Numbered from the stretch's first letter, positions 12,503 through 47,445 are shown. The stretch: 64,000 bases of DNA from Eledone cirrhosa (GCA_964016885.1 OZ024741.1:21886001-21950000); one strand, 5' to 3'. Notes: generated by a model not told the origin, from the letters alone. A program made the numbers and translations.

Positions 12503-13420
12503 AGAGGCACTGCACCTCAGTAAATTTACTGAAAGGTGGGTGAATGAAGCGAAAATGGCCCGAGTGATTGGGCCTTCTCTGTTTATAAGCCTGTAGGTTG
12601 AGGAAGAGAGCAAAAGGAAGAAAGGAGCACTTGCACAACACGCTCCTTGAGTTGAGGGTTGTTCTATCGATGGGGTATTAAACAACCCATTTGTGGTGCC
12701 CCCCCCCCCCCCCCTATTGGGGATTTCGATTGTTGTAATTGTTTGTTTTTATATTTTTTACACAACTGTATGTAAAATCCCCGGCATGTCTTTGTATTGT
12801 CCCCTTTTCTTGTGCGCCCTTGTGGCTAATAAAGAAATATATCTATCTATCTATCTATCAGTTAAAAGGACTGAGGGCAAACACCTTTCTCTCCGGACAA
12901 CAACTCATCCCCTTCTTTAAGTACCACTTCAGAGGGAAGGTGAGAGTGGAGAGAGAGGTGCTACACCCCAATAAATTCGCTGAAAGGTGGGTGAATGTGG
13001 CAAAAATGGCCCGAGTGAATGGGCCTTCCCTGTATATAAACCTGTAGGTTGAGGAAGATAAACAGAGGGAAGACAGGAACACCTACAAAACGTGTTCCTG
13101 GTGTTGAGGGTTGTTCTATCCACGGGGTGTAAAACAACCCTGCAGTAACGTTCCCTCCTAATGGGAATTTCAATTGTTAAAGTTATTTTTATGTAAAACC
13201 CCCGCCGTCACGTCTTGTAATGTCCCATTTTTGTACGCCCCTGTGGCAAATAAAGAAAGATATCTATCTATCTATCTGCCTCTCCTTATTGAGGACGCCT
13301 TGTTATGTAAACTCCCCCCATTGTACTTGTCCCACTTTTTGATGCCCTGGTGGCAAATAAAAAGAAAATTATCTATCTACCCACCTACCTACCTATCTAT
13401 CTATCTACCCACCTACCTAC

Positions 13421-13451
<31 letters not shown>

Positions 13452-13742
13452 CCCACCTATCTATCTATCTATCTATGGGCCTTCTCTCCATATCAGCCTG
13501 TAGGTTGAGGAAAAGGAGGAGGAGAGGAAAGGAGTACAAGCTCTTCGTACTCCTGGAGATGAGGGTTGCACATTTTTTTCGGGGGTCTGTGTTACCCATA
13601 TAAACTGTCTCCCTCTATTGGGGAAAATCGACTAACTTTTAAATTCCATCTGTGATAACATTTTACACGTTTTTATTGTATGTAAACTTCCCCCTTTGTA
13701 TTTGTCCCCTTCTTTTGTGCCCCTGTGGCTAATAAAGAAATA

Positions 13743-13796
<54 letters not shown>

Positions 13797-13801
13797 CCCA
13801 C

Positions 13802-13846
<45 letters not shown>

Positions 13847-14808
13847 AGGCGCTCGCCGCCCTCTGGCAGGCGGATCCGGTTATCAGTGGAGACTCCACCG
13901 CAACATTCTATAGAGGGCTGGTACGCAGCAGGTGCGACGACGCCCTCGGAGAAGCCCTAGACATGGAGGAGGACGAACTGGCCAGCCTGTTCGGTAGGAC
14001 ATTCAGCCCGGGACCTATGGACAATTTCCAGAAGTCCCTGGCCTGGCAGTGCTACCGAGGGGCTTTACCCGTTCGAGAAAGGCTCTACAGACACGGGCGT
14101 CCGGGTAGGGACCCCGCCAAAAAGATCTGTCCCAGATGCGTGTGCGACGAGGAAACCGTTGCACACGCATTGGTACACTGCTCGGGCGTAGCCGATCTGT
14201 GGGGCTATGTCGAACAACTGCTGTCAAGGGTGGGACCGATCCGGTTGACCACCGAGTCTATTGTAATGATCAAGCCGCCTCCCCCCTTCAAAGATGAAGC
14301 AGAGGCGGTGTTTCTGTGCGTAATAGCCATGGCGAAAGAGGTTGTATGGTGGACGCGTCTGAAAGGACTGAGGTCAGGCACCTTTCTCTCTGGCCAACAA
14401 CTGGTCCGTTTCTTCCGATATCATTTCGGAAGAAGGATCAGGATGGAGAGAGAGGTGCTGCACCCCAGCCGTTTCTATGAAAGATGGGTGAAAGTGGCGA
14501 GAATGGCCCGTGTGAATGGGCCTTCACTCTACATCAGACTATAGGTGAGGAAGATGAAAGACCAAGGGAGCACCCCTTCTCTGTGCTCCTGAGGAGAAGG
14601 GTTGCACACTTTTTTCGGGGGTGTGTGCGACCCCCCAAGGCGCCTCCTCTCTATTGAGGATTTTGTTAAAAATTTTATTTTTTGTTATATCTTATTTTAT
14701 TTTTATATTTTGTTATTGCCTCCTCCTTATTGAGGACGCCTTTTTGTGTAAACTCCCCCCTTTGTACTTGTCCCACTTTTGATGCCCTAGTGGCAAATAA
14801 AAGAAACA

Positions 14809-14855
<47 letters not shown>

Positions 14856-15491
14856 TTATCTATCTATCTATTAGAGAGGTGCTTGGCCACAGGCAGTTTT
14901 ATGAAAGGTGGGTGATAGTGGCGAGAATGGCTCGTGTAAATGGGCCTTCTCTGTATACCATCCTGTAGGTAAAGAAGTGAAGGAGAGGGGAGCACCTTCT
15001 CCATGTGCTCCCCGGGAAAAGGATTGCACACTTTTTCGGGGCTGTGTGCAACCCCCATCACGTCCCCTCCCTTTTGAGGTTGTTTTCGATTATTTTCATG
15101 TCTCCGGACAACAATTGATTCCCTTCTTTAAGTATCACTTTAGAAGGAGAATCAGGGTGGAGAGAGAGGCACTGCACCCCAGTAAATTTACTGAAAGGTG
15201 GGTGAATGAAGCGAAAATGGCCCGAGTGATTGGGCCTTCTCTGTTTATAAGCCTGTAGGTTGAGGAAGAGAGCAAAAGGAAGAAAGGAGCACTTGCACAA
15301 CACGCTCCTTGAGTTGAGGGTTGTTCTATCGACGGGGTATTAAACAACCCATTTGTGGCGCCTCCCCCCTATTGGGGATTTCGATTGTTGAAATTGTTTG
15401 TTTTTATATTTTTTACACGACTGTATGTAAAATCCCCGGCATGTCTTTGTATTGTCCCCTTTCTTGTTGCGCCCTTGTGGCTAATAAAGAA

Positions 15492-15571
<80 letters not shown>

Positions 15572-15580
15572 CTCTTTCTG
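12503..15580 (+). mobile_element. Chain of seven 5'-truncated Tx1-clade 3' ends, mostly separated by (TATC)n
   Basis: Fragments start at ~12503, 12860, 13278, 13475, 13846, 14872 and 15101. All but the 14872 piece end gtggc(t/a)aataaa(a)gaaa..(tatc)n. Most encode the ORF2 C-terminus (ERWV..A.MARV.GPSL). Confidence 0.9.
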
Positions 15581-15788
15581 TCTAACGTGTGGAATATCGC
15601 CGGTAAGTTTTTTGTTAATTTCTATGCAAAAAACCGATCTAATTGTTGGAAAAAAATACAACACTTTGTAGATTAACCCCCAAGCTGAATTGTCAGCTGG
15701 GTGGTAATCCCATTTTTCGCCCCTGTAGGGGCGAACATTTTATTTAAAAGTTTGTTTTAAAATATCAAATTTTACAAAGTAAAAAAAC

Positions 15789-17667
15789 TTGAGCAACACT
15801 AGCACGCTGGAGAACGTTAATAGAGAAAAGAGAGAGAAAGAGGCAGATATTAACGTTATATCTGCTTCTGCTGCTATGGACGTTGCCATAGATACTGTCA
15901 CAAAAGAAAAAAATATATCAACATTTGAAAATGTTACAATTTCTACCGCCGAAGCGGAGAAAAATGACAATAACACACGGGAAAACACGGCAAAAAAACC
16001 CATTGACATACATACACATGAAAAAGACATCAACAACTCTACAGATACATCTACACATAAAATTTCCAACAACGATAACATCATTATTAACAACAACATC
16101 ACACAAAAAAAGAAAATGTCTTTTGCTGACACAGTCAACAAGAAACAAGATTTTATAAATCTTGATATCTCCAACGCAAGAGATATGCTCCAGCAAGGGA
16201 GAAAATTTGTAACTTTCGAAGAAAGAGGTGGGTTTAGAATTAACTCACCCCTTGAAATAAAGGAAGACACAAACCGCCGATCAGTCACTTTTAGGACTGT
16301 GTCAAATTCGTCAAGAAAACCGACATTTGTTAATCAGTCAGATATAGAAGATTCTTTCAAGGAGATTCTAGGAAATGTCGATTTTCTCCAGCGAGGAAAA
16401 CAGTACGGAAGTGTTTCCGTACTGTTTAAAAGCGAGGCACTGGCCCCAAAAAACTCTGTGACACCAGTAGTGTCAAAAGCATACACCTTTTTCCCTACAT
16501 ACATGGGGAAAAGGACACAAAAAATAAAAATAAAAAACATACCTCCAAGCATTAACATCTGGTGGATCTTGGCTGGCTTCGTAGAGCCAGAAACAGACAT
16601 AATACTTTCGATACGAAAATCCATTCGACAAAGGTGGGCGGGCACCGATTTGGAGATTCTGTTGCAAATGAAACCGGAGAGAATCTCCAAAATGCCCGAA
16701 AGAGTCGTTATTGATAATAACAACAAAATAAACATTTCGGTAGAAGGAAGAAAATTTCACTGCTTTCGCTGTGGTAGCACATCTCACCTAAAAGCCCCTT
16801 GTCCACAAACACACAACAGCAACATCATAAAAAAAAACGCTATTACCAACACCAACACCAAAACAACCACCACCACCACCACAAGTACAACGACAGACGA
16901 AACGAGCAACCACACCAAAACAAACAGACACTCAACCAACAACAACAGAAAAAACAGAGACAACACCCCTGAAGAACACATCCCCACTCCATCCCACTCC
17001 ATCAAACACTACCACAAACACACATACCGAAACACCACCACCACCACACAACATACCCTTACCCCACACACCTGACGATGATTATTCATCGACGGATGAA
17101 GCTGCTTCTCCTTCTTTAAGTGAAGAAGAGGGAGAACCGCGGAAATCCCCAAAACAAAAAAAGAGACACCACAAAACCCCCAAAACTCCAATCACCAACA
17201 CCAACACACAACCACAGACACAAACAACAACACAAACAACACCACAGTCAAATATCCCCCTATCAGCAAAACCAGCACCAACACCACCCCAAACACAAGC
17301 ACCCACCATAAAAAGAAAACTCCCGGATGAACAACAAACTAAAACAATACAACAAAAACACAAACAACAATACGCATACATCAACACAAACAACAAGAGT
17401 TTGATGGAGGTCATCTCCCAAAACCCCAAGGTGGAGACGGAGGGCAAAACTTTCGTCAAGGCAGAATCGTCTCCACACCTTAAACTTATAAGGGTTTCTA
17501 TGGAAACCTATAAAGACCTGAAAATTAAATTTTCACAGGACGTGGGCAACCCCTGCCACAAACCCATCAACCGCGTCCTGTTGAAAGGTTTCCCCACCCC
17601 ACCCAACACCCCATCCAGCACCCAAATGGAGATTGAACAACCCGATCTCCAGGAAACGAAAAGGTAA
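15789..17667 (+). pseudogene. Tx1 A ORF1 (gag-like, CFRCGSTSHLKAPC knuckle), frameshifted in the low-complexity linker
   Basis: ORFs 15789-17075 and 17401-17667 align with the intact ORF1 at 38602-40434. Confidence 0.85.
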
Positions 17668-17708
17668 GTGCACCTTTCGTCCTTTTTCTCCAACTTTTCT
17701 TCACCAAC

Positions 17709-20700
17709 ATGGCTGGTTTACGAGTTGGAACCGTGAATGTGCGTGGCCTAGGGATGCCCTGGAAACAGGGCCAACTTTTAAACGACCTTAGGTCACACAG
17801 TATGGATGTGATAGCCATCACCGAGTCCAGAATCCACAACAGGCAGCAACTAACCCCCATCTTCGACGACTTTGAGATCTACGCATCTCTCTGTCAGCCA
17901 GGAGGTGGAGGTGGAGGGGCTGTTATGTTTCGGAAGAACCTGGACGTCGGAGTACAGCAAGTACACTTGGACCCGGAGGGTAGACTGGTAGTCCTAGACG
18001 TGAACAGTATCGGAGGTGGAGCCTTCAGACTGGTGGCCGTTTATGCCCCGACCGGGCAATCGCAATCACGGCCAGACTTCTTTAAGCGTCTAGAGTCTTT
18101 TCTGGGAACGTCTCGCTCCTTACTTTTAGTGGGGGACTGGAATGGTATCCTAGATGCACGATGGGACTATGTGGGAGCATGTCCCAGTAGAGCGGGGTGC
18201 AACAGCCTCAAAACTTTAATCGGCCAATTCCAACTGGCCGATAGGTATCGACTGGATTTCCCGACTGCACCACAGTGGACGTGGGTAAACCGCAGTGGGA
18301 CATCTAGATCGTATTTAGATAGGTTCTTCATTAGAGAAAGGGACAAGGATATGTTAAGCTGTCCACGAATGCACATGGTTGCCTATTCAGATCACAAGTT
18401 AGTCGTCTGCTTAGTCAACCGTGATAGAATACATAGACAGGGTCCCGGATACTGGAAGCTGAACGTGTCGTTGCCGGCACGTAAAGCTTACAGTGAACGG
18501 ATAAGTAAACTAGTCAAGCAACGGTTAACGGGAGCCATCGTCAACAATAGATGGTGGTACTCTCTCAAGAAAGCAATTTGAATAGAATCGATAGGGTATA
18601 GCAGAGAGTTAGCCTTAGAGAAAAACAGAATAGAAAGAGAACTAGTAGCCAAGGTAGAGGAGGCACTTAGAAGTGGCAACGCGGCTAGAGTGTTAGCGTC
18701 GAGAACGGCACTGGACCAGTTCTTCGATGCGAAACACGAAGGCTGCGTGGTCAGAAGCAAAACACGTGCTCTAGGAAACGAAGGAGCGAAAGCTGTCAGC
18801 TGGGCCCGAGTGGCGGAGGCAAAAAGTGGCAACAAGTCCACGATTCGGTCTTTGAAAGACCAAAACGGACGCGTGCTACTTGACCCCAAGCAAATGTGCG
18901 CGGCCTTTCAGCGGCACTTTGCGCGACTGTTTGAGCAGAACGACGGTGAGCCGAACGGGGCAATGGACTTTAGTTCATACCTCGACGGCCTGCCGCGTCT
19001 CTCGAACACGGACGCCGAGTTCTGCGAAAGACCGATCACGGACACTGAGATACGGGACGCTCTGGGCCGCTGCGGGAAACGCAAGTCACCCGGTCTAGAT
19101 GGTCTACCCTACGAATTTTACATAGGCATGCCGGACTTGTTCTCTGGCGTCCTCGAAGCCGTCTACTGCAATTGGCAGCAGAACGGGAGAATTCCCAGTT
19201 CTGCAAGCAAGGGCGTAGTAACGCTGATCAGGAAAGACGAGAACAAGGGGGACGAAATTAACAACTTCAGGCCCATAACTCTGCTCAACACAGAGTTAAA
19301 GATTTTGGCCAAGGTGCTAGCGACGAGGTTGGCGCTTGTCGTCGAGAACCTGGTAGGGAAAGCGCAAACGTGTGCAATCCCGACCAGGTCCATACACGAC
19401 AACTTCCACCTCATGCGATACATCATAGAGAGGGTAGGTAGTAAACCCGGCTTCGGTGGGGCTCTGATCAACTTGGATCAGTCTAAGGCATTCGATAGGG
19501 TCGACCATCGATACTTGGAAGCGGTTCTCAAGGCGGCCGGTTTCGGTCCCGTGTTCAGAGGATGGATCGAGGCGATGCACACCAGCATCTGCTCGAGGGT
19601 CAAGGTGAACGGCTACCTATCGGAGCCGTTCGCAATCACGCGTTCCATTCGACAGGGATGCCCTCTCTCCTCCATTCTGTATGTATTGACTACTGCGGAA
19701 ATTGGAGCTGTTGCAGGGCATCCCCCTAGAACCGGGACTGCGCAAAGCGGCGTCGGCTTATGCCGACGACGTAACGGTAATGGTGTCGAGCACCTCGGAA
19801 ATCGGGGTGATCGGCAACATACTGAAAGAATACGAAACGCTGACGGGAGCAAAACTAAACCCAGACAAGTCTGTCGGTTTGCAACTCGGTACGTGGAGAG
19901 GCAAACCGATGACATCCGACAGCATCGTTGGACGCTGGACGGACGGACCGGTGAAATTGCTCGGGGTCTGGTTCGGTCCAGACCTCCAGGTGGAGAAAAA
20001 CTGGAACGAGGTCACGGCCAAGGTGTTTGCACTCACTCAGAAGTGGGCAGAGTGCAAACTGTCCTTGAAAGGTCGAGCGGAGGTGGCGAACACTTTCATA
20101 GCGTCCGTCATCTACTACCGCTTGACTGTCGTGCCTTGTCCCCGTGAACACCTCGCCAAGATGGAACGCATGCTCTTCCAGTTTCTGTGGAAGAAGCAGG
20201 CTCCGCTGGTGAGGAGATCCGTCTGCTGTCAGCACCCTTCCAACGGAGGGCTGGGAATGCCGTGGCTCATGATGCGCAAACATGCGCTGAGGCTGCGGCA
20301 TCTCCAGGTATTCCTCACCGACCCCCAACCGGTGTGGGCACCGTTTGTGAGACAGGCTTTCCCACAGCTCGTCTCGCTAACGGAGCTGCAGTCCTGGGTG
20401 AAGAAAAGACCGAAAACGATGGGCGCCTGGCACATTGAATGCGCTCAGGCGCTCACAGTCCTCTGGCAAGCGGGCGCAGCAATCAGTGGAGACTCCACTT
20501 CGACATTCTATAGAGGGATTGTACGTTACAAGGGCGACGACGTGCTCGGAGAGACTCTGGGCGTCGAAGACGATGAGCTCACCAGTATGTTTGGTAGGAC
20601 TTTCCGCCCGGGACCTATGGACAACTTCCAGAGGTCCCTGGCCTGGCAGTGCTACCGAGGAGCTCTACCGGTTCGTTACAAGATCTACAGGCACGGACGC

Positions 20701-21144
20701 CCTGGCAGGGATCCTTCCAAGAGGACGTATCCAAGATGTGCGCAGGACATTGAAACAGTTCTGCACGCAATTGTACACTGCCCGGGCGTAAGCGACCTGT
20801 GGAACTATGCAGAACAACTGCTGTCGCGTATGGGACAAATACAGTTGACTGCCGAGTCCATAGTAAGGATCAAACCGCCAGACTCTTTCAAAAACGAAAG
20901 AGAGGCGGTTTTCCTCTGTACGGTGGCTATGGTGAAAGAAGTTATATGGTGGACGAGGTTGAGAGGACTGAGGACAGATGCCTTTCTCTCCGGACAACAA
21001 TTGATTCCCTTCTTTAAGTATCACTTTAGAAGGAGAATCAGGGTGGAGAGAGAGGCACTGCACCCCAGTAAATTTACTGAAAGGTGGGTGAATGAAGCGA
21101 AAGTGGCCCGAGTGATTGGGCCTTCTCTGTTTATAAGCCTGTAG
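17709..21144 (+). pseudogene. Tx1 A ORF2 (APE-RT-Cys), one stop and one frameshift
   Basis: ORF pieces 17709-18581, 18690-~19690 and 19702-21144. Confidence 0.9.
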
Positions 21145-21408
21145 GTTGAGGAAGAGAGCAAAGGGAAGAAAGGAGCACTTGCACAACACGCTCCTCGAGT
21201 TGAGGGTTGTTCTATCGACGGGGTATTAAACAACCCATTTGTGGCGCCTCCCCCCTATTGTGGATTTCGATTGTTGAAATTGTTTGTTTTTATATTTTTT
21301 ACACGACTGTATGTAAAACCCCCGGAATGTCTTTGTATTGTCCCCTTTCTTGTTGCGCCCTTGTGGCTAATAAAGAAATCTATCTATCTATCTCTCTCTC
21401 TCTCTATC

Positions 21409-24400
21409 AGACGTGTGGAATTTCGCGGAGAAGTTTCCGTTAATTTATGTAAGAAAAAAACATGAGTTTTTAGTTAAATTTTATATCATTGTGTAACTTG
21501 ACCACCCGTCTGGACCTTCAGGTGGTGGGTCAACTCATTTTCGCCCCTACAGGGGCGGAATATCCATTTAAATATTTTTCTCCATCGAATCTTGGAAAAA
21601 ATATTGTAAAATTTTGATTACGTTATGAACGCTGCGTCCAACGATAATGGTGGTGGAGAGGCGGTAAGACTACAAAGCTCGCAGTCAACAACGTCTTCTT
21701 CACTAGATACTATAGAGATGGAAAGACGAAATGAAAATGTAAAAACGAATTCGTATCCAAACAACACAAATGACACCAAACAGTTCAATGACAACAAAAA
21801 TAACAGCAACACCAATAATGATGATAAAATCAACAATGATAACAACAACAAAGAAAAAAATAAAGACAACACCAATAACACCAGCATCAAAGACAACAAC
21901 AACACCAAGGAAAATACGAACAATACCAACATCGGTGACAACAAGAATAACAACAAGAATAACAACAATAATGACAACACCACCAATACGGATTCCACAA
22001 AGAAACCAAAAATCTCCTTTGCAGAGAAAGTTCAAAAAAAGGAAGAATTGATATATCTCGACATAACAAATGCTGAACAACTTTTAAAGGACGCTCAGAG
22101 ATATGTTAGTTTCGAAAAAAATGGTGCTTTCAGCATCAATTCTCCGGTAGAAATTCGCAAGGAAACTGCTCTCAAAACGATAGTTTTTAGGACAGTTACC
22201 AATTCTACCTGAAAACCAGTCCAATTGTCACAGAAAGAAATTGAACTGGTTTTCAAAAATTCAATGAATGATATTGCATTCATTCAAAGAAGCAAACTTT
22301 TTGGGAGTATTTCGGTACTCATGAAGGATCAATTGACGGCCCAAAATTACTCTGTGTCGCCAATTGTATCCAACCTGTACACCTTTTTCCCTACATACAT
22401 GGGAAAAAGGACACAAAAGATCAGAATCACGAGTGTCACACCAAAGGTGAACATATGGTGGATACTGTGCGGCTTCATCAATTTTGATGAAGACAGAATA
22501 CTGTCAGTAGGAAAGTCCCCCAGAGATGTATTCAATGGGACTAGCATTGAAGTTCTGGTGCAAATGAGCCCAGAGCGAATAGCTATGATCCCACAGCGTG
22601 TACTCCTGGACGGACTCACCTACATAAACCTTTCGGTTGAGGGTAGGCGGCCTTCATGTTACCATTGCTTTAGCAGGGGTCACCTGAGGGCTTCCTGTCC
22701 TAAACTAATGAACCAAAAAAAGGCTCTGCTGCCGACACCCATCAAAACAACACAACCACCAACACCACCACAACAACAACAACACCAACACACAAAAATA
22801 ACCACAACAAACACAGTCCCACCCAACCCCACTCCACCTAAAACCACTGCAAAATCACATACAGACACAACAGCTCCCCAAGACATACCCCTCCCCAATC
22901 ACACAGACGATACAACAGATGAGGCTATCTCGCCATCACCCAGTGAAGACGAGGGAGAACCCCATCGATCGAAAAGAAAGAAAAAACATCACAAAAGCAA
23001 AAAACCAGTAAACACTACCACAAACATACACCCACCAACACAAACAACAAAAATATCACAAACAAAACCCCCACCTCCTGAAAACAAAATACCTACAACA
23101 AAACGAAAGCACACACAAGAACTACAGACAAAAACAAACACAACACAAGAAAATTACACTTACACTTACATAAACACTGAAAACAAAACACTAATGGAGA
23201 CCATCACGAACGACCCTTCGGTGAAAACCGAAGGGAAAACTTTCGCCCACTCTATTAAAAATAGCAAAAAACTGAACCTAAAACTGATTAGGGTCCCTAT
23301 ACAAACTTATAGGTCCCTAAAAGAAACATTTAAGAAGGATGTCGGGAATTCCTGCGTGAAACCACTCAACCGCGTCCTTCTCAAATGTCTCCCCACCACA
23401 GACACCCCCATCCCACCAGACCCCACCCCACCAAACATCTCCGTCCCCACCCCGCCGGAAACCACCACCCATCCAGACAACCCCTCCAACACCCCCATGG
23501 AAATCGTGCGGCCTGGTCCCCAGGAGACGAAGGGTGAGTGATCTCTTTTCCTCTTTTAACTTTTCAGCACCAACATGGCCAATATAAGAGTTGGATGTGT
23601 GAACGTACGCGGCCTGGGGATGCCCTGGAAACAGGGCAAACTCTTAAACGACCTCAGGTCGCACAGTATGGATGTGGTAGCCATTTGCGAGTCCAGGATC
23701 CACAGCGAGCGACAGCTAGCCCCCATCTTCGATGACTTTGAGATCTACGCATCTCTCTGTCAACTGTTGGGGCGGAGTTGCCGTTTTGCTGCGGAAACAC
23801 CTGGGCCTCGTAACACAGACGGTACATCTGGACCCGGAGGGTCGACTGGTGGTCCTAGACGTTGACGGTAGTGAAGGTGGAGCCTTCAGGCTGGTGGCCG
23901 CATATGCCCCATCCGGGACACCGCGGCCAGACTTCTTCAAACGTCTAGAGACTTTTCTGGGAACGTCCCGCTCCTTGCTTTTAGTGGGGGACTGGAATGG
24001 AATCCTAGATGCACGTTGGGACTATGTGGGAGCATGTCCCGATAAAGGGGGGTGTAACAGCCTCAAACAGTTAATCGACCGATTTGACCTGGCTGATAGA
24101 TATCGACTAGATTTTCCGACTGCGCCACTGTAGACGTGGAGTAATCGTAGCGGAACATCTAGATCGTACCTAGATAGGGTTCTAGTTAGAGATAAGGATA
24201 GGGACATGTTAAGCTGTCCACAAATGTTCATAGTTGCCTATTCAGATCACAAACTAGTGACCTGCATGGCCAACCTTGATAGAACCCATAGACAAGGACC
24301 CGGCTACTGGAAGCTGAACTTGTCGTTACCGACAAGCAAAGCCTACAGTAGACGGATTAGCACTTTAGTTAAACAGCACTTGACAGGGGCCATTGTCAAC

Positions 24401-27226: not shown

Positions 27227-27295
<69 letters not shown>

Positions 27296-32830: not shown

Positions 32831-33097
32831 TATATATACTACTAAAGCTCTGTGATTGTGTCATGTAATTTAATACAGCGAAAACGGCGCATAATGGGAA
32901 AATACTTTGAAAGCAAGTTGCCCCTCAAATGGGAATAGAAATGGAATAAAACAAATTTTCTGTAAATCGGAGCACGGGTTTCCGAAATACGGGGTTTTTC
33001 AGAGTACCTTCATAGAGAGAGAAATATAGAGAGAAAGAGATAGAGGTTGTGAGAGAGTAGACTGAAAGAGAGACATAGAGAGATGTAGACAGGGAAG

Positions 33098-33099
<2 letters not shown>

Positions 33100-33172
<73 letters not shown>

Positions 33173-34762: not shown

Positions 34763-34850
<88 letters not shown>

Positions 34851-35166
34851 CGTTCTCTCTCTCTCTCACACACACATACACACACACTCACGCACAGATA
34901 TATGTGTGTGTGAGTGAGTGTGAGATGGATAGATAAATTTCTATTTATTTGCCACGAGGGCACAAAAGAAGGGGACAAATACACAGTGGGGGAGTTTACA
35001 TAAATCGAGTAAAGAAAAAGGAATAACAATAATAATATAATAATAAAAAGTCCTCAAAAGGGAGGGGGCGTGTTGGGGATTGCACATACCCCCGAAAAGT
35101 GTGCAACCCTTTTCGCGGGGGAAGCCCAGAGAGGAGGCGCTCCCCCTTTCCTCTTCACTTCTTCAC

Positions 35167-38100
35167 CTACAGAACAATGTAGAGAGAAGGCCCATTTACA
35201 CGAGCCATTCTCGCTTCTTTCACCCACCTTTCATAAAACTGTCTGGGGCCAAGCACTTCTCTCTCCATCCTGATCCTTCTTCCGAAGTGGTATCGGAAGA
35301 AGTAAACCAGGTGATGGCCGGAGAGAAAGTCACCCGACCTCAGACCTTTCAGGCGCGTCCACCACACAACCTCTTTCATCATGGCTATTACGCACAGAAA
35401 GACCGCCTCTGCTTCGTTTCTGAAGGGAGGAGGCGGCTTGATGTTCACCACAGACTCGGCGGTTAATCGAATCGGCGCCACACGCGACAGCAGTCGTTCG
35501 ACGTAGCCCCACAGATCGGCAACGCCCGGGCAGTGTACCAGTGCATGCGCAACGGTTTCCTCGTCGCGCACGCATCTGGGATAGATCTTTTTCGCGGGAT
35601 CCCTGCCCGGGCGCCCGTGTCTGTAGAGCTTTTCTCGAACGGGCAGAGCCCCCCGGTAACACTGCCAGGCTAGGGACCTCTGGAAGTTGTCCATGGGTCC
35701 CGGGCCGAAAGTTCTACCGAACAGGCTGGCCAGTTCGTCCTCCTCCATGCCTAGCGACTCTCCAAGGGTGTCGTCGCCCCTGCTAGCCACCAACCCTCTA
35801 TAGAATGTCGAGGTGGATTCTCCACTGACAGTCGGGTCCGCTTGCCAGATAGCCGTGAGCGCCTGGGCACACTCGGTGTGCCAGTTGCCCAGTTTTCTCG
35901 GTCTTTGCTTCACCCAGGATTGCAGTTCGGTGAGCGAGACGAGCTGTGGGAAGGCTCGCCTCACAAACGGGGCCCACACCGGCTGACCGTTGAGGAATAC
36001 CTGTAGATGCCGTAGCCTCAATGCGTGCCTACGCATCAACAGCCACGGCATACCCAGCCCTCCTTTCGAAGGGTGCTGGCAGCAGATGGATCTCCTCACC
36101 ATGGGAGGCCGCTTCTTCCAGAGGAACTGGAAGAGCATGCGTTCCATGATGGTGAGCTTTTCCTTGGGGCAAGGCACGACGGTCAGGCGGTAGTAGATGA
36201 CGGACGCTATGTAAGCGTTCGTCACCTCCGCCCGACCTTTCAGTGATAGTTTGCACTTGGCCCACTTCTGGGTCAGCGCAAACACCCTGCTCGTCACCTC
36301 GCCCCAATTCTTCTCCACCTGGAGGTCCGGTCCGAACCAGACCCCGAGCAGCTTCACCGGGCCCTCCGTCCACCGCCCGACGACACCGTCTAACGGCATC
36401 GGTTTGCCCCTCCACGTTCCGAGTTGCAAACCGACTGACTTGTCCTGGTTCAGCTTAGCCCCCGTCAGCCTTTCGTATTCCTCCAGTAGGGTGGCGATCG
36501 CCCCGATTTCCGAGGCGTCCGCCACCATTACTGTTACGTCGTCGGCATAGGCCGAGACCGCTTTGTGCAATCCCGGTTCCAGGGGTATGCCCCGCAGCAA
36601 CTCCAACTTCCGCAGCAGTGGCTCGAGAGTCAATACGTACAGAAGGGAGGAGAGGGGGCACCCCTGTCTGATGGATCGGGTGATTTGAAACGGCTCCGAG
36701 AGGTAGCCGTTTACTTTAATCCTAGAGTAGATGTTGCCACTGTGCATGGCAGAAATCCAGCCCCTGAAAACGGGTCCGAAGCCCGCCGCCGCTAGCACCG
36801 CATCCAGGTAACCATGGTCGACCCTATCGAACGCCTTAGATTGATCCAAGTTGATCAGGGCCCCACCAAAGCCGGGTTCGTAGCCAACCCTCTCTATGAT
36901 GTATCGCATGAGGTGGAGGTTGTCGTGAATGGACCTGGACGGGATAGCGCATGTCTGCGCGTCTCCCACCAAACCACCCACCACAAGCGCCAACCTCTTC
37001 GCCAACACCTTGGCCAAAATCTGTAACTCTGCATTCAGCAGAGTTATGGGCCTAAAGTTACTTAAGTCGTCCCCCTTGCTCTCGTCCTTCCTCACTAGCG
37101 TGACCACGCCCTTGGTCACAGAACAGGGAATTCTCCCGTTCTGTTGCCAGTTGCAATAGACAGCCTCGAGGAGTTCGGAGAACAAGACCGGCATAGCTAA
37201 ATAAAGTTCGTATGGTAGACCATCGAGACCCGGGGATTTGCGTCTGCTGCATTGGCTGAGCGCTTCCCCGATTTCAGTGGCTGTGATTGGCCTTTCGCAG
37301 CACTCCGCTTCGCCGCTCGAAAGACGCGGTAGACCGTCGAGGTATGGACCGAAGTCCACATCCCCGTCCGGCCCCCCGCCACCTCCGAACAGTCGAGCAA
37401 AGTGCCTTTGAAAGGCCTCGCACATTCGCTCAGGTTCAAGGATCACCCGTCCATCCTGGTCTCGCAAAGACCGAATGGTGGATTTAATCCCACTCTTGGC
37501 TTCTGTCACGCGGGCCCAGCTAACAGCTTTGGTCCCCTCGTTTCCTAAAGCACGTATTTTACTTCGGACAACGCAGCCTTCGTGCTTCGCGTCAAAGAAC
37601 TGGCTCAACGCCGTTCTCGCCGCTAACACTCTGGCTACGTCTCCGCTCCTAATCGCCTCTTCTAGTTTATCTGTTAACTCCCTTTCCTTCCTATTTCTAT
37701 TCGCCGCTAGTTCCTTACTGTAACCTATCGAACTTACTCTAATCTCTCTCTTTAGAGATACCCACCACCTACTGTTGACGATCGCTCCCGTCAACCGCAT
37801 CTTAACTAAGCTACTAATCCGGTTTCTGTAATCTTTCTTTGTCGGCAAGGACAAGTTCATCTTCCAGTAACCGGGACCCTGTCTATACGTTCTATCAAGG
37901 TTGACCACGCAGGTCACTAATTTGTGATCTGAATAGCCAACCATGATCAGTTCTGGACAACTAAATACGTCCCTATCCTTACTCCTAACCAAAAACCTAT
38001 CTAGGTACGATCTAGATTGTCCACTGCGGTTTGCCCAGGTCCAGGTTGGCGCAGTTGGACAATCTAGTCGAAATCTATCGACCAGGTCGAATCGATCGAG

Positions 38101-38605
38101 TAACCCCTTGAGGCTGCTACACCCCCCTCTATCGAGACATGCCCCTGCATAGTCCCAACGCGCATCTAGGATTCCATTCCAGTCCCCCACTAAAAGCAGG
38201 GAACGCGACGTTCCTAGAAAAGTCTCCAGACGCTGGAAGAAGTCGGCTCTTTCCGCCCCGAAGGGAGCATAAAGACCGACCAGTCTGAAAGCCCCGCCTT
38301 CACCGCCTCCGACGTCCAGCACCAGTAATCGACCCCCCGGGTCCGAGTGAACAATCTGTACGTCGAGAGTCAGACGTTTATCCAGCAGTACGGCAACTCC
38401 CCACCCCGCCTCCGGGTTGACAGAGAGATGCGTGCATCCCAAAGTCATCGAAGGCGGGCGCCAGCTGTCTCACGCTGCTGATCCGACTCTCGCAAACAAC
38501 CATCACATCTATACTTTGTGACCTGAGGTCACTTAGAAGCTTTGCTTGCTTCCAAGCTGAGCTCAGGTCACGCGCGTTCAAACAGCCAACTCTCAATTGA
38601 TCTAT
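35167..38605 (-). pseudogene. Tx1 G ORF2 (APE-RT-Cys); one frameshift near 38400 and ATA at the start position
   Basis: ORFs 38378-38596 (N-terminus) and 35167-38448 (remainder). Confidence 0.85.
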
Positions 38606-40434
38606 TTTGGTGTTGAAAGTGAAGAAAGAAAAGCACTTACCTCTCCGGGTTGCGTAATTTCCATGGCATCAGGTGTGTTGGGTGGAGGGATGTTTTGTGG
38701 TAGTGTGGGGGTACACGTGTGTGGTGGGGTTGGGGTATTTGGAGTTGTGTCAGGGAGAGGGGCGGTTATGGGGAAATCTTTCAAGAGGACGCGATTCAAC
38801 GGTTTTAAACAGGGGGGGCTCACGTCCCGTCTAAATTGTTCTTTTAAGGAACGATAAAGGTCCAGAGGGACCTTTATCATTTTTAAATGGGTGAAGTTCT
38901 CTGTTGAGATAAAGTTTGGCCCTTCGGTCTGCACCATAAGGTTATTGTTTATTAATTTAACCAGTTTTTTGTTTTCTTTATTTATATATGTGTATTGCAA
39001 CGTCTTTTTTTGTGATGCTGTCAATGTTTCGGAGAGGGGAGGCGCAGATTTATTTTTGTTTGTTGAGGGTGGGGTGTTTTTGATTGGAGTTGGTGTTTGT
39101 GTGTGGGTTATTTGTGGTGTGCTGGGTGTGTGTTTTCTTTTTTTTCTTTTAACTTGTCTGAAGGCTTCTCCTCCTTCTTCTTCAGAAGTTGGGGGAAACT
39201 CTTCAGCGCTAGGTGGGAGGGACATGTTGTGTGGTTGTTTTTTTTTTGCGGGAGGGGTAGATTTGTTACTGTTTTTTTTATTATTTGTTTGGAATGGGTT
39301 TTGTGGTGGTGGTGGTAATGTTTGTGTCGTGCTTGTGGTTGGTGATGGTGGTGGTGATGTTTGTGTTGTGGTTGGTGGTGGTGATTTTTGTGTCGTGCTT
39401 GTGTTTGGTGCTGGTGGTGGTGATGTTTGTGTTGTGTTTGTGGTTGGTGGTGTCTGTATTTTGTTTGCTGTGTGTGGTATTAGTGTATTTTTGGAGGTGG
39501 GTGGTGTTGGTGTACTGTTTGTGGTGGGTGTGGGCAATAGTCCTTTTTGGGGGATACGTTTCGGGCAGTTAGCCTTAACGTGTCCCCTTTCCATGCATAA
39601 ATAGCATGCTGGTCTTCTCCCCTCTACAATTATGTCTATTGGGGTAAGGTCATCCAGCCAGATGCGATCCGGGATTTGTGCTATTCTTTCGGGCCTCATT
39701 TGGACTAGTATGTCGAGGCCCATTCCCAGGAACGCATCTCCAGTTGCCTTCCCCATTGACAGCATTGTGTCTTCGCCCATATCTATGAAGCCAGCAATAG
39801 CCCACCAGAAGTCCATTGTGGGCAGCATTGTTTTTACTTTTACTCTCTGTGTTCTTCTACCCATGTAGGAGGGATAGAAGCTGTATGTTGTCGATGAGAG
39901 TGGGCTTAGGGAAAGCTTCTCCGCCGTTTCCTTGTCTCTTGTTAGGACCGAAATGCTGCCATAGAGTCGCTCCTTTCGTATGAAGAGAATATTCTTCATA
40001 TAGTCTTTTAGGACTAACTCTATTTCCATTTGGCTGGGCTGTGCTGGCTTTCTTGTCTGGTTCAGTATAGTTCTGAAGAGAACTGTGCTTTCTGTTCTGG
40101 CTTTCTTGAATTCTGGGGGGGAGTTAATGGAAAACATTCCGTTCTCCCCCAAAACAATGTGTTTCTTTGCTTCGGCCAGTTTTTCTCTGGCGGCAGTTAG
40201 GTCAATTGGTGTGTATGTAATGGATTGTTTTGTTTTCTGGGCGAAAGTTGCCCTGTCGTTATTTGTATTATTTTCTGTTTGTTTGTTTTCTGTTTGCTCA
40301 TTTTCCTTAACATTTGTTTTTTCATTTTGTTTGTTTGTTTCAATGTCTAGTTTTGTTGTAATTATTTTTTGTTCTTCAGACTTGGGGGGCGTGGCAGAGC
40401 TAATGGCAGACATGTCTGCCATCTTTTCCGCCAT
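38602..40434 (-). CDS. Tx1 G ORF1 protein (CYLCMERGHVKANC knuckle, P/T-rich linker, conserved C-terminal domain)
   Basis: Uninterrupted 610-aa ORF homologous to the other ORF1s in the window. Confidence 0.88.
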   Translation of the reverse strand: MAEKMADMSAISSATPPKSEEQKIITTKLDIETNKQNEKTNVKENEQTENKQTENNTNNDRATFAQKTKQSITYTPIDLTAAREKLAEAKKHIVLGENGMFSINSPPEFKKARTESTVLFRTILNQTRKPAQPSQMEIELVLKDYMKNILFIRKERLYGSISVLTRDKETAEKLSLSPLSSTTYSFYPSYMGRRTQRVKVKTMLPTMDFWWAIAGFIDMGEDTMLSMGKATGDAFLGMGLDILVQMRPERIAQIPDRIWLDDLTPIDIIVEGRRPACYLCMERGHVKANCPKRIPQKGLLPTPTTNSTPTPPTSKNTLIPHTANKIQTPPTTNTTQTSPPPAPNTSTTQKSPPPTTTQTSPPPSPTTSTTQTLPPPPQNPFQTNNKKNSNKSTPPAKKKQPHNMSLPPSAEEFPPTSEEEGGEAFRQVKRKKRKHTPSTPQITHTQTPTPIKNTPPSTNKNKSAPPLSETLTASQKKTLQYTYINKENKKLVKLINNNLMVQTEGPNFISTENFTHLKMIKVPLDLYRSLKEQFRRDVSPPCLKPLNRVLLKDFPITAPLPDTTPNTPTPPHTCTPTLPQNIPPPNTPDAMEITQPGEVSAFLSSLSTPK

Positions 40435-40644
40435 GCTGCCAAGAAAGAAATTTTCGGCAAAAATAGATATTTATTTTACCCCCTAAAAAGGGGGTAAATG
40501 CAAAAATGTTTCCCTAAATAACAGGGGTTAGTGTTCCAAATGTGTTGCACTGAAAAATTTATCCGGTACTTACAATAGTAAGGGTAAATCCCGATGGAAT
40601 AGCGGAGCCGATGTGAAGCGTGTCTTACTCTATCAAGATAGATA

Positions 40645-43600
40645 AATTTCTATTTATTTGCCACGAGGGCACAAAAGAAGGGGACATTTACACAGTGGGG
40701 GAGTTTACATAAATCGAGTAAAGAAAAAAGGAATAACAATAATAATATAACAATAAAAAGTCCTCAAAAGGGAGGGGGCGTGTTGGGGATTGCACATACC
40801 CCCGAAAAGTGTGCAACTCTTTTCGCGGGGGAAGCCCAGAGAGGAGGCGCTCCCCCTTTCCTCTTCACTTCTTCACCTACAGAACAATGTAGAGAGAAGG
40901 CCCATTTACACGGGCCATTCTCGCTTCTTTCACCCACCTTTCATAAAACTGTCTGGGACCAAGCACTTCTCTCTCCATCCTGATTCTTCTTCCGAAGTGG
41001 TATCGGAAGAAGTAAACCAGGTGATGGCCGGAGAGAAAGTCACCCGACCTCAGACCTTTCAGGCGCGTCCACCACACAACCTCTTTCATCATGGCTATTA
41101 CGCACAGAAAGACCGCCTCTGCTTCATTTCTGAAGGGAGGAGGCGGCTTGGTGTTCACCACAGACTCGGCGGTTAATCGAATCGGCGCCACACGCGACAG
41201 CAGTCGTTCGACGTAGCCCCACAGATCGGCAACGCCCGGGCAGTGTACCAGTGCATGCGCAACGGTTTCCTCGTCGCGCACGCATCTGGGACAGATCTTT
41301 TTCGCGGGATCCCTGCCCGGGCGCCCGTGTCTGTAGAGCTTTTCTCGAACGGGCAGAGCCCCCCGGTAACACTGCCAGGCTAGGGACCTCTGGAAGTTGT
41401 CCATGGGTCCCGGGCCGAAAGTTCTACCGAACAGGCTGGCCAGTTCGTCTTCCTCCATGCCTAGCGACTCTCCAAGGGTGTCGTCGCCCCTGCTAGCCAC
41501 CAACCCTCTATAGAATGTCGAGGTGGATTCTCCACTGACAGTCGGGTCCGCTTGCCAGATAGCCGTGAGCGCCTGGGCACACTCAGTGTGCCAGTTGCCC
41601 AGTTTTCTCGGTCTTTGCTTCACCCAGGATTGCAGTTCGGTGAGCGAGACGAGCTGTGGGAAGGCTCGCCTCACAAACGGGGCCTACACCGGCTGACCGT
41701 TGAGGAATACCTGTAGATGCCGTAGCCTCAATGCGTGCCTACGCATCAACAGCCACGGCATACCCAGCCCTCCTTTCGAAGGGTGCTGGCAGCAGATGGA
41801 TCTCCTCACCATGGGAGGCCGCTTCTTCCAGAGGAACTGGAAGAGCATGCGTTCCATGATGGTGAGCTTTTCCTTGGGGCAAGGCACGACGGTCAGGCGG
41901 TAGTAGATGACGGACGCTATGTAAGCGTTCGTCACCTCCGCCCGACCTTTCAGTGATAGTTTGCACTTGGCCCACTTCTGGGTCAGCGCAAACACCCTGC
42001 TCGTCACCTCGCCCCAATTCTTCTCCACCTGGAGGTCCGGTCCGAACCAGACCCCGAGCAGCTTCACCGGGCCCTCCGTCCACCGCCCGACGACACCGTC
42101 TAACGGCATCGGTTTGCCCCTCCACGTTCCGAGTTGCAAACCGACTGACTTGTCCTGGTTCAGCCTAGCCCCCGTCAGCCTTTCGTATTCCTCCAGTAGG
42201 GTGGCGATCGCCCCGATTTCCGAGGCGTCCGCCACCATTACTGTTACGTCGTCGGCATAGGCCGAGACCGCTTTGTGCAATCCCGGTTCCAGGGGTATGC
42301 CCCGCAGCAACTCCAACTTCCGCAGCAGTGGCTCGAGAGTCAATACGTACAGAAGGGAGGAGAGGGGGCACCCCTGTCTGATGGATCGGGTGATTTGAAA
42401 CGGCTCCGAGAGGTAGCCGTTTACTTTAATCCTAGAGTAGATGTTGCCACTGTGCATGGCAGAAATCCAGCCCCTGAAAACGGGTCCGAAGCCCGCCGCC
42501 GCTAGCACCGCATCCAGGTAACCATGGTCGACCCTATCGAACGCCTTAGATTGATCCAAGTTGATCAGGGCCCCACCAAAGCCGGGTTCGTAGCCAACCC
42601 TCTCTATGATGTATCGCATGAGGTGGAGGTTGTCGTGAATGGACCTGGACGGGATAGCGCATGTCTGCGCGTCTCCCACCAAACCACCCACCACAAGCGC
42701 CAACCTCTTCGCCAACACCTTGGCCAAAATCTGTAACTCTGCATTCAGCAGAGTTATGGGCCTAAAGTTACTTAAGTCGTCCCCCTTGCTCTCGTCCTTC
42801 CTCACTAGCGTGACCACGCCCTTGGTCACAGAACAGGGAATTCTCCCGTTCTGTTGCCAGTTGCAATAGACAGCCTCGAGGAGTTCGGAGAACAAGACCG
42901 GCATAGCTAAATAAAGTTCGTATGGTAGACCATCGAGACCCGGGGATTTGCGTCTGCTGCATTGGCTGAGCGCTTCCCCGATTTCAGTGGCTGTGATTGG
43001 CCTTTCGCAGCACTCCGCTTCGCCGCTCGAAAGACGCGGTAGACCGTCGAGGTATGGACCGAAGTCCACATCCCCGTCCGGCCCCCCGCCACCTCCGAAC
43101 AGTCGAGCAAAGTGCCTTTGAAAGGTCTCGCACATTCGCTCAGGTTCAAGGATCACCCGTCCATCCTGGTCTCGCAAAGACCGAATGGTGGATTTAATCC
43201 CACTCTTGGCTTCTGTCACGCGGGCCCAGCTAACAGCTTTGGTCCCCTCGTTTCCTAAAGCACGTATTTTACTTCGGACAACGCAGCCTTCGTGCTTCGC
43301 GTCAAAGAACTGGCTCAATGCCGTTCTCGTCGCTAACACTCTGGCTACGTCTCCGCTCCTAATCGCCTCTTCTAGTTTATCTGTTAACTCCCTTTCCCTC
43401 CTATTTCTATTCGCCGCTAGTTCCTTACTGTAACCTATCGAACTTACTCTAATCTCTCTCTTTAGAGATATCCACCACCTACTGTTGACGATCGCTCCCG
43501 TCAACTGCATCTTAACTAAGCTACTAATCCGGTTTCTGTAATCTTTCTTTGTCGGTAAGGACAAGTTCATCTTCCAGTAACCGGGACCCTGTCTATGCGT

Positions 43601-46351
43601 TCTATCAAGGTTGACCACGCAGGTCACTAATTTGTGATCTGAATAGCCAACCATGATCAGTTCTGGACAACTAAATACGTCCCTATCCTTACTCCTAACC
43701 AAAAACCTATCTAGGTACGATCTAGATTGTCCACTGCGGTTTGCCCAGGTCCAGGTTGGCGCAGTTGGACAATCTAGTCGAAATCTATCGACCAGGTCGA
43801 ATCGATCGAGTAACCACTTGAGGCTGCTACACCCCCCTCTATCGAGACATGCCCCTGCATAGTCCCAACGCGCATCTAGGATTCCATTCCAGTCCCCCAC
43901 TAAAAGCAGGGAACGCGACGTTCCTAGAAAAGTCTCCAGACGTTGGAAGAAGTCGGCTCTTTCCGCCCCGAAGGGAGCATAAAGACCGACCAGTCTGAAA
44001 GCCCCGCCTTCACCGCCTCCGACGTCCAGCACCAGTAATCGACCCCCCGGGTCCGAGTGAACAATCTGTACGTCGAGAGTCAGACGTTTATCCAGCAGTA
44101 CGGCAACTCCCCCCCCCCCCCCCGCCTCCGGGTTGACAGAGAGATGCGTGCATCTCAAAGTCATCGAAGGCGGGCGCCAGCTGTCTCACGCTGCTGATCC
44201 GACTCTCGCAAACAACCATCACATCTATACTTTGTGACCTGAGGTCACTTAGAAGCTTTGCTTGCTTCCAAGCTGAGCCCAGGCCACGCGCGTTCAAACA
44301 GCCAACTCTCAATTGATCTATTTTGGTGTTGAAAGTGAAGAAAGAAAAGCACTTACCTCTCCGGGTTGCGTAATTTCCATGGCATCAGGTGTGTTGGGTG
44401 GAGGGATGTTTTGTGGTGGTGTGGGGGTACACGTGTGTGGTGGGGTTGGGGTATTTGGAGTTGTGTCAGGGAGAGGGGCGGTTATGGGGAAATCTTTCAA
44501 GAGGACGCGATTCAACGGTTTTAAACAGGGGGGGCTCACGTCCCGTCTAAATTGTTCTTTTAAGGAACGATAAAGGTCCAGAGGGACCTTTATCATTTTT
44601 AAATGGGTGAAGTTCTCTGTTGAGATAAAGTTTGGCCCTTCGGTCTGCACCATAGGGTTATTGTTTATTAATTTAACCAGTTTTTTGTTTTCTTTATTTA
44701 TATATGTGTATTGCAACGTCTTTTTTTGTGATGCTGTCAATGTTTCGGAGAGGGGAGGCGCAGATTTATTTTTGTTTGTTGAGGGTGGGGTGTTTTTGAT
44801 TGGAGTTGGTGTTTGTGTGTGGGTTATTTGTGGTGTGCTGGGTGTGTGTTTTCTTTTTTTTCTTTTAACTTGTCTGAAGGCTTCTCCTCCTTCTTCTTCA
44901 GAAGTTGGGGGAAACTCTTCAGCGCTAGGTGGGAGGGACGTGTTGTGTGGTTGTTTTTTTTTGCGGGAGGGGTAGATTTGTTACTGTTTTTTTTATTATT
45001 TGTTTGGAATGGGTTTTGTGGTGGTGGTGGTAATGTTTGTGTCGTGCTTGTGGTTGGTGATGGTGGTGGTGATGTTTGTGTTGTGGTTGGTGGTGGTGAT
45101 TTTTGTGTCGTGCTTGTGTTTGGTGCTGGTGGTGGTGATGTTTGTGTTGTGTTTGTGGTTGGTGGTGTCTGTATTTTGTTTGCTGTGTGTGGTATTAGTG
45201 TATTTTTGGAGGTGGGTGGTGTTGGTGTACTGTTTGTGGTGGGTGTGGGCAATAGTCCTTTTTGGGGGATACGTTTCGGGCAGTTAGCCTTAACGTGTCC
45301 CCTTTCCATGCATAAATAGCATGCTGGTCTTCTCCCCTCTACAATTATGTCTATTGGGGTAAGGTCATCCAGCCAGATGCGATCCGGGATTTGTGCTATT
45401 CTTTCGGGCCTCATTTGGACTAGTATGTCGAGGCCCATTCCCAGGAACGCATCTCCAGTTGCCTTCCCCATTGACAGCATTGTGTCTTCGCCCATATCAA
45501 TGAAGCCAGCAATAGCCCACCAGAAGTCCATTGTGGGCAGCATTGTTTTTACTTTTACTCTCTGTGTTCTTCTACCCATGTAGGAGGGATAGAAGCTATA
45601 TGTTGTCGACGAGAGTGGGCTTAGGGAAAGCTTCTCCGCCGTTTCTTTGTCTCTTGTTAGGACCGAAATGCTGCCATAGAGTCGGTCCTTTCGTATGAAG
45701 AGAATATTCTTCATATAGTCTTTTAGGACTAACTCTATTTCCATTTGGCTGGGCTGTGCTGGCTTTCTTGTCTGGTTCAGTATAGTTCTGTAGAGAACTG
45801 TGTTTTCTGCTCTGGCTTTCTTGAATTCTGGGGGGGAGTTAATGGAAAACATTCCGTTCTCCCCTAAAACAATGTGTTTCTTTGCTTCGGCCAGTTTTTC
45901 TCTGGCGGCAGTTAGGTCAATTGGTGTGTATGTAATGGATTGTTTTGTTTTCTGGGCGAAAGTTGCCCTGTCGTTATTTGTATTATTTTCTGTTTGTTTG
46001 TTTTCTGTTTGCTCATTTTCCTTAACATTTGTTTTTTCATTTTGTTTGTTTGTTTCAATGTCTAATTTTGTTGTAATTATTTTTTGTTCTTCAGACTTGG
46101 GGGGCGTGGAAGAGCTAATGGCAGACATGTCTGCCATCTTTTCCGCCATGCTGCCAAGAAAGAAATTTTTCGGCAAAAATAGATATTTATTTTACCCCCT
46201 AAAAAGGGGGTAAATGCAAAAATGTTTCCCTAAATAACAGGGGTTAGTGTTCCAAATGTGTTGCACTAAAAAATTTATCCGGTACTTACAATAGTAAGGG
46301 TAAATCCCGATGGAATAGCGGAGCCGATGCGAAGCGTGTCTTACTCTATCA
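40645..46351 (-). mobile_element. Full-length Tx1-clade element, subfamily G, copy 2
   Basis: Near-identical to copy 1 at an offset of ~5710 bp; ORF1 frameshift in an A run (~44960), ORF2 G-run frameshift and a stop at 41684. Confidence 0.95.
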
Positions 46352-46384
46352 AGATAGATAGATAGATAGATAGCTAGATAGATA

Positions 46385-47375
46385 TATTTCTTTATTTGCC
46401 ACAAGGGCGCACAAGAAAAGGGGACAATACAAAGACATGCCGGGGATTTTACATACAGTCGTGTAAAAAATATAAAAACAAACAATTACAACAATCGAAA
46501 TCCCCAATAGGGGGGAGGCGCCACAAATGGGTTGTTTAATACCCCGTCGATAGAACAACCCTCAACTCCAGGAGCGTGTTGTGCAAGTGCTCCTTTCTTC
46601 CTTTTGCTCTCTCCCTCAACCTACAGGCTTATAAACAGAGAAGGCCCAATCACTCGGGCCATTTTCGCTTCATTCACCCACCTTTCAGTAAATTTACTGG
46701 GGTGCAGTGCCTCTCTCTCCACTCTGATTCTCCTTCTAAAGTGATACTTAAAGAAGGGAATCAATTGTTGTCCGGAGAGAAAGGCATCTGTCCTCAGTCC
46801 TCTCAACCTCGTCCACCATATAACTTCTTTCACCATAGCCACCGTACAGAGGAAAACCGCCTCTCTTTCGTTTGTCCCAGTTGTTCTGCATAGTTCCACA
46901 GGTCGCTTACGCCCGGGCAGTGTACAATTGCGTGCAGGACTGTTTCAATGTCCTGCGCACATCTTGGACACGTCCTCTTGGAAGGATCCCTGCCGGGGCG
47001 TCCGTGCCTGTAGATCTTGTCACGAACCGGTAGAGCTCCTCGGTAGCACTGCCAGGCCAGGGACCTCTGGAAGTTGTCCATAGGTCCCGGGCAGAAAGTC
47101 CTACCAAACAGACTGGTGAGCTCATCGTCTTCGACGCCCAGAGTCTCCCCGAGCACGTCGTCGCCCTTGTAACGTACAATCCCTCTATAGAATGTCGAAG
47201 TGGAGTCTCCACTGATTGCTGTGCCCGCTTGCCAGAGGACTGTGAGCGCCTGAGCGCATTCAATGTGCCAGGCGCTCATCGTTTTCGGTCTTTTCTTCAC
47301 CCAGGACTGCAGCTCCGTCAGCGAGATGAGCTGTGGGAAAGCCTGTCTCACAAACGGTTGGGGGTCGGTGAGGAA
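46385..47375 (-). mobile_element. 5'-truncated Tx1 subfamily A copy with internal deletions, between (GATA)n tracts
   Basis: Reverse complement of ~20310-21378; (GATA)n at 46352-46384 and 47376-47420. Confidence 0.9.
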
Positions 47376-47445
47376 AGATAGATATATAGATAGATAGATA
47401 GATAGATAGGGATAGATAGGAAGAGAGAGTGACAGGATATATATA

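Follow-up and report, generated by a model that had tools for sequence, protein, structure and literature searches.

Tx1-like retrotransposons stacked at TATC tracts in Eledone cirrhosa, and a family offshoot in which the RNA tail may have changed the target

Several families of Tx1 retrotransposons are described as inserting into microsatellites, i.e. Kibi into (TC)n, Koshi into (TTC)n and crocodilian families into (TTCC)n/(TTTC)n (PMC4494074, PMC3812793). According to a review, it is poorly understood how long interspersed nuclear elements (LINEs) of the apurinic-like endonuclease (APE) type target microsatellites, and the endonuclease is believed to be mainly responsible (PMC3812793). In Octopus vulgaris, 13 recently active L1-Tx1 families with 421 insertions have been reported (PMC13282606). 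Here we describe a stretch of 64,000 nucleotides from Eledone cirrhosa (GCA_964016885.1 OZ024741.1:21886001-21950000, hereafter the window), in which 13 pieces of L1/Tx1-type LINEs form two co-oriented arrays at TATC tracts. The pieces belong to seven subfamilies, A (4 copies), B (2), C, D, G (2), H and E (2), as judged by the best high-scoring segment pairs (identity 94-99% within groups and 68-90% between groups). Where these elements land is probably decided for the most part by their own RNA end. The array itself is a new target for a known microsatellite habit; the added value lies in an offshoot of family A that acts as a natural tail-swap control.

Genome-wide, TATC is both the target and a tail carried by the element. 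GAAA-NN-TATC was found at 272 of 300 position-ordered 3' ends (the first 100 listed of families A, B and E; counted by eye, NN-TATC occurs in 87, 89 and 96 of them, respectively), and a run of A at 1 of the 300. The 3'-end matches number at least 2011 for A, 6076 for B and 768 for E, while the end of family G gave no match in a genome search that may skip repeats. On the 5' side, TATCTATC is present within 45 nt upstream of 116/120 full-length copies (the 30 best of four families, including four window copies; background 0.21%), and it occurs on the same strand in 62 of the 65 solitary ones, i.e. those with no sister before them. Full-length 5' flanks were rejected as the sole proof of the target because the leader is partly element-borne, and the truncated copies were therefore used as the real test. 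The set comprised 145 distinct copies. TATC tails are present on 95 of these, of which 29 are full length, 51 truncated and 9 chimeric, while 6 run off the locus; the chimeric and run-off copies were set aside. The 5' junction of the truncated copies carries TATCTATC in 34/51 and at least one TATC unit in 38/51 cases, against 0.08% (within 20 nt upstream) and 2.9%, respectively, for random positions in 400 kb of random genome. Imperfect TATC units are repeated on both sides as duplications at four loci (L144, L166, L187, L189), single TATCT sites with duplications serve as targets at three others (L254, L255, L258), and the target duplications are mostly 7-20 bp long.

An earlier sequence-only reading of the window had proposed a (TATC)n-specific lineage that leaves target on both sides, and had seen predominantly non-TATC 5' flanks or random orientation as fatal to this idea. 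The flanks and the orientation just described are the opposite of that. Insertion at TATC and the presence of TATC on both sides thus stand; a short motif suffices as target, some of the TATC on each side belongs to the element, and the lineage is wider than TATC, as an (ATT)n-tailed sister group falls into the same clade. At one locus (L184) the (TATC)n tail of a family B copy adjoins a (GATA)n run, i.e. there is an inverted tract junction.

The offshoot of family A, which is young, ends in GAAATC-AATA instead of GAAATC-TATC. This ending was seen in 10/37 of the first family A copies and in 7/100 of the first position-ordered family A ends listed (about 7%). The 43 AATA-tailed copies that we studied were gathered by deliberate enrichment, and three pairs among them look like segmental duplicates; together with 4 AATC and 2 CATC ends they make up the 49 family A ends with a non-T first letter. 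TATCTATC was found on the 5' side of none of the truncated AATA-tailed copies (0/40). Their landing sites are (C/T)AATAT: a duplication of at least 7 nt beginning with AATA is present in 25/40 truncated copies, always after C (16) or T (9) (chance about 1e-8), position 5 is T in 39/43 copies (37% expected), and positions 5-7 are biased beyond background. The duplications and the bias at position 5 indicate that AATAT belongs to the target and not to the tail alone. In the full-length AATA copies, a 13-bp duplication is followed by a CTATCTATC-like leader (read by eye).

The AATA and TATC classes are only 0.9% apart, which is the same as the distance within each class, and both contain an open second open reading frame (ORF2). 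Residues 1-240 of ORF2, which hold the APE, show no fixed difference between 6 AATA and 8 TATC copies, and 3 of the 6 AATA copies are identical to the TATC majority sequence. Two target classes without a fixed APE difference suggest that specificity would not reside in the endonuclease, and this weakens the proposal of the sequence-only reading, namely that a site-specific APE explains the site choice, which is not supported. The sole majority change in ORF2 between the classes is D932Y. Two haplotypes carry the AATA tail: one forms a star of 9 copies (bootstrap 66), the other is the pair L368 and L387 (93). The pair is sister to the TATC copy L226 (86), and lacks D932Y; here the tail either arose a second time or was exchanged within the last 500 nt. 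Two further copies, L386 and L350, have four private single-nucleotide polymorphisms in common and AATC as first tail unit, which makes it look as if the template had passed this unit on; in addition, an AATC site is duplicated at one short AATC copy. A comparison of the AATA sub-branches with longer matches in the flanks gave no clear signal. We also note that several AATA-tailed family A copies, one of them full length, lie in one satellite at 35.25 Mb (G000:C1; L324, L351, L352) and 36.18 Mb (L353). The satellite unit holds AATATTAACC beside CTATC, which makes it a candidate birthplace of the offshoot.

In the window, self-BLAST, the junction tables and the identity groups bear out the copies, subfamilies and two arrays of the sequence-only reading. 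The plus array (12503-32838) contains 10 pieces and the minus array (34912-47420) contains 3, with 2 kb of unrelated repeats in between. The features are as follows.

12503..12838, plus strand: e1, family A, 5'-truncated 3' end whose 5' junction lies at TATATA of another repeat and not at TATC
12860..13259, plus strand: e2, family D, 5'-truncated
13278..13369, plus strand: e3, family G, 92-bp 3' end
13370..13476, plus strand: degenerate (TATC/TACC)n tract, 27 units
13477..13740, plus strand: e4, family B, 5'-truncated
13847..14807, plus strand: e5, family G, 5'-truncated, zf-RVT region
14873..15100, plus strand: e6, fragment of family H (83% to E) that lacks a 3' end of its own and is fused to e7
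15101..15493, plus strand: e7, family A, 5'-truncated
15470..15497, plus strand: example of the 3' signature, i.e. GCC-N5-GGC hairpin, AATAAA, GAAA, two subfamily letters, TATC
15585..21379, plus strand: e8, family A, full length; ORF1 and APE-reverse transcriptase (RT) ORF2 with stops/frameshifts
21409..27225, plus strand: e9, family B, full length, ORFs broken
27296..32830, plus strand: e10, family C, full length, ORFs broken; 3' end where another repeat starts with a TATCTATAC-like sequence, no TATC tract
34936..40630, minus strand: e13, family E, full length
35167-38469, minus strand: e13 ORF2 frame, 1100 aa open, N-terminus out of frame
38602-40470, minus strand: e13 ORF1 frame, 622 aa, CCHC knuckle
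40650..46345, minus strand: e12, family E, full length, ORFs broken, 99% identical to e13
46384..47375, minus strand: e11, family A, 5'-truncated, internal deletion
47376..47420, minus strand: TATC tract upstream of the minus array with no element before it (pre-existing target)

All pieces except e6 have their own 3' end (12/13). At 11 of these 12 ends AATAAA..GAAA-NN-TATC is found with no poly(A), as had been proposed; the exception is e10, the final 3' end of the plus array, which reads GAAA-TATATATAC. The small 3' hairpin is a weak prediction, obtained for 4/6 element ends with z between -0.8 and -2.3. A TATC tract on the same strand precedes 11 of the 13 5' junctions, in agreement with the claim that each element starts within a TATC tract in fixed orientation; the other two junctions are at 12503 (preceded by TATATA) and at 15101 (the fusion). 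Runs of at least three TATC/GATA units number 14 in the 64 kb, and every one lies inside the arrays. The plus array has no long microsatellite at its outer ends; each of them falls at one TATATC/TATCTATA motif, and these motifs belong to two different common repeats. A single empty site for the plus array was looked for and not found, the flanks being two different repeats, so this array does not represent one clean insertion site. The ORFs are broken in the five full-length window copies, and open ORF2s of 1148 aa occur elsewhere in the genome.

Head-to-tail growth of the arrays, another claim of the sequence-only reading, is also seen outside the window: a sister 3' end lies at most 230 nt before 55/120 full-length copies, whereas 0/7 random tracts of at least three TATC units lie at an element end. 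By this contrast the TATC tails appear to be favoured landing pads, be it through the purity of the tract, its context or the survival of copies, and arrays grow because each insertion restores TATC behind the new 3' end. Judging from the outer ends, the long tracts inside the plus array may have lengthened after insertion, and the nearly identical family E dimer (e12/e13) could also be the result of a template jump or a crossover.

We consider it probable, from comparison of the genomic copies, that a loose APE nick is followed by pairing of the RNA end letters after GAAA-NN, and that this pairing picks the TATC site. The APE would nick A/T-rich DNA loosely, and a nick at a T^purine step would be compatible with each of the target classes, i.e. 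TATC, ATT and AATAT. The transcript would read past the element end into the flank of the parent copy's landing site; the position of the poly(A) signal AATAAA, about 6 nt ahead of the element end, makes it likely that the tail letters are such read-through. The ORF2 protein (ORF2p) would bind the RNA 3' end, perhaps at the small GCC-N5-GGC hairpin, and act in cis. The nick would prime reverse transcription only if the freed 3' end pairs with the read-through letters, and an off-target landing would hand a new flank, in other words a reprogrammed target, to the descendants. The observed junction anatomy comprises TATC on both sides of truncated copies, absence of poly(A), and stacking behind sister tails. 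Pairing of this kind has precedents: L1 priming requires 4 matching nt (PMC3649969), and accurate priming by SART1Bm rose from 36% to 76% when AGG was added to its RNA (PMC7265360). More tentatively, and with a little less than even confidence, we suggest that 5-7 nt at the RNA 3' end program a lineage, that an off-target insertion can found a heritable target class with no change of protein, and that the TATC, ATT and AATAT classes began in this way, the endonuclease adapting later.

Several observations weigh against this explanation. The ATT and TATC groups differ in their APE (53-64% identity), so target and APE co-vary between the old groups, and the (ATT)n group shares its last 23 nt with family A. 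The haplotype of a truncated copy reports its RNA and not the protein that mobilised it. D932Y, in the C-terminal part of ORF2, is present in 14/18 AATA versus 1/12 TATC copies, and Q480R in ORF1 in 5/5 versus 0/8; the main AATA group has a low bootstrap. Duplications are absent from 15/40 truncated AATA-tailed and 13/51 truncated TATC-tailed copies, and no comparable offshoot turned up in the first 100 ends listed for B or in those listed for E. Moreover, the endonuclease (EN) of Tx1L alone is reported to nick almost only its target in vitro (PMC1950540), and EN swaps to move TRAS1/SART1 (PMC1919474).

Some of these points would fit an APE that alone sets TATC, with the AATA copies moved in trans by another ORF2p, such as that of the (ATT)n sister group, whose APE is so different, whose 3' end is that of family A, and for which the specific ENs of Tx1L and TRAS1/SART1 offer known parallels (PMC1950540, PMC1919474). 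We regard this as unlikely: (ATT)n follows 0/49 of the non-T family A ends although AAT tracts outnumber AGAT tracts 30 to 10 in random DNA, four AATA copies keep a whole open ORF2, and the tail would have to steer the site even in trans. Still less credit can be given to a protein change outside the APE, D932Y or Q480R, that moved the target and left the new tail as a consequence. The frequency of both changes among AATA copies speaks for it, as does the thought that ORF1 aids SART1 localisation (PMC1919474), but D932Y is missing from 4 AATA copies (3 independent) and present in one TATC copy, Q480R sits in a T/Q-rich low-complexity stretch, and L368 and L387 stem from another haplotype.

A TATC that is an element-made tail only, with arrays arising by template jumping, unequal crossover or passive survival, seems very improbable. 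The leader and the first tail unit are indeed element-borne, e12 and e13 are joined by just two TATC units, the outer ends of the plus array lack long tracts, and nine junctions are chimeric. This idea is nevertheless largely refuted by TATCTATC upstream of most truncated copies, by the imperfect units duplicated on both sides, and by array neighbours that come from different subfamilies; such mechanisms may still account for single same-family dimers.

The elements are L1-group APE non-long-terminal-repeat retrotransposons. ORF2 (1148 aa) contains APE, RT and a C-terminal zinc-binding region (Pfam PF03372, PF00078, PF13966), its best PDB match is human L1 ORF2p (E 2e-55 over aa 5-857; R2 at 1e-22), and the copies show the 5' truncation and variable target-site duplications of L1-group LINEs. 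In ORF1 there is a zf-CCHC match below the cut-off (E 0.005-0.15), PF23057/PF23058 were not found by the Pfam search, and the Atlas match is a ZCCHC3-RBD cluster (0.91, 164 features). A ZCCHC3-like ORF1, with RNA-binding domains and a CCHC knuckle, is presumably a Tx1-type feature. The nearest named protein is from Argonauta hians (66%). In an RT tree of 38 rows, which contains no named Tx1L, Kibi, Koshi or Keno reference, the TATC families group with the (ATT)n-tailed sister group and the Argonauta protein in a single clade (100/99); homologue searches and the cluster look-up gave no named Tx1 reference among the matches. Membership of the Tx1 clade is likely. The sister clade of the lineage (100/100) consists of a large set of unnamed ENA proteins (P0003-P0037), which are 39-44% identical and some 1150 aa long.

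The (ATT)n sister group has the same 3' end as family A, CCCTTGTGGCTAATAAAGAAA-TC, followed by (ATT)n (L357, L367, L372, L382, L383), and an ORF2 that is 60-70% identical to that of family A. ATT tracts lie at several of its 5' junctions, and it stacks head-to-tail as well. Most lineage matches in the random sample belong to this group (L295, L301, L316). Families A and C and the ATT group have a splice-donor-like AGGTAAG at the ORF1 stop, just before ORF2 (window 17662-17670 and 29400-29408; L357, L383), and CTGTAG at the ORF2 stop.

The remaining window contains further repeats. An abundant repeat with an internal duplication (11727-12502; 3022 candidates) is cut off where the plus array begins. 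Element e10 is inserted at the first bases, TCTATATACTACTAAA, of another abundant repeat (32836-33000; 2321 candidates), which we take to be Helitron-like. A different, broken APE-RT LINE with a PHD-finger match after the RT lies at 632-3868 (PF00628, E 6e-6), and another broken RT-bearing element at 50476-53292 on the plus strand. Tandem arrays include a 22-bp minisatellite at 56366-61601, which has 238 copies with 94% matches and is strongly G-skewed, as well as arrays with units of 35 bp (55481-55724) and 45 bp (1-526).

Family A is a natural control, as near-identical elements differ in a few tail letters and in their target, and it reduces the question of endonuclease versus RNA to a one-construct experiment. 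It also hints at a way in which Tx1 elements could switch target as often as they do. Should the tail indeed steer insertion, RNA alone could be enough to bias a gene writer of the APE type, and the mechanism would explain the piling of at least 8,800 copies into arrays.

The literature that we consulted on Tx1L and the targets of Tx1 elements, on LINEs of cephalopods, and on read-through and retargeting showed neither a TATC-targeting Tx1 nor natural tail-driven retargeting, though families of this kind may be listed in Repbase/Dfam, Kojima and Fujiwara 2004, Christensen 2000 or the supplements of PMC4494074. The L1-Tx1 families of Octopus vulgaris, a related host, are probably, going by their description, of the same class, and the main text of that paper does not contain the word 'target' (PMC13282606). 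Like Kibi, Koshi and the crocodilian families, the present elements are L1/Tx1-group APE-RT LINEs that insert into microsatellites in a fixed orientation. With target on both sides and in one orientation (116/120, 34/51 and 272/300), they far exceed Kojima's bar of more than 20% target-flanked copies (PMC4494074). They differ in that TATC, ATT and AATAT are not among the targets listed for those families in the text available, in their invertebrate host, and in a within-family change of target with unchanged APE, which is not described there for Kibi/Koshi-type families. In human L1 at T-tracts (PMC3649969) and in SART1Bm/R1Bm annealing (PMC7265360), site choice is aided when the RNA end pairs with the nicked strand, and probably likewise here. 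Those systems have poly(A) or a fixed target-copy tail and the evidence comes from constructs, whereas here the tail changed naturally and the genomic target followed. STITCHR, in which R2 is equipped with homology arms, similarly redirects target-primed reverse transcription by RNA homology (PMC13708176); it is engineered, of the restriction-like endonuclease type, and uses 50-nt arms and a Cas9 nickase, whereas the present system is natural, of the APE type, and would rely on about 5-7 nt.

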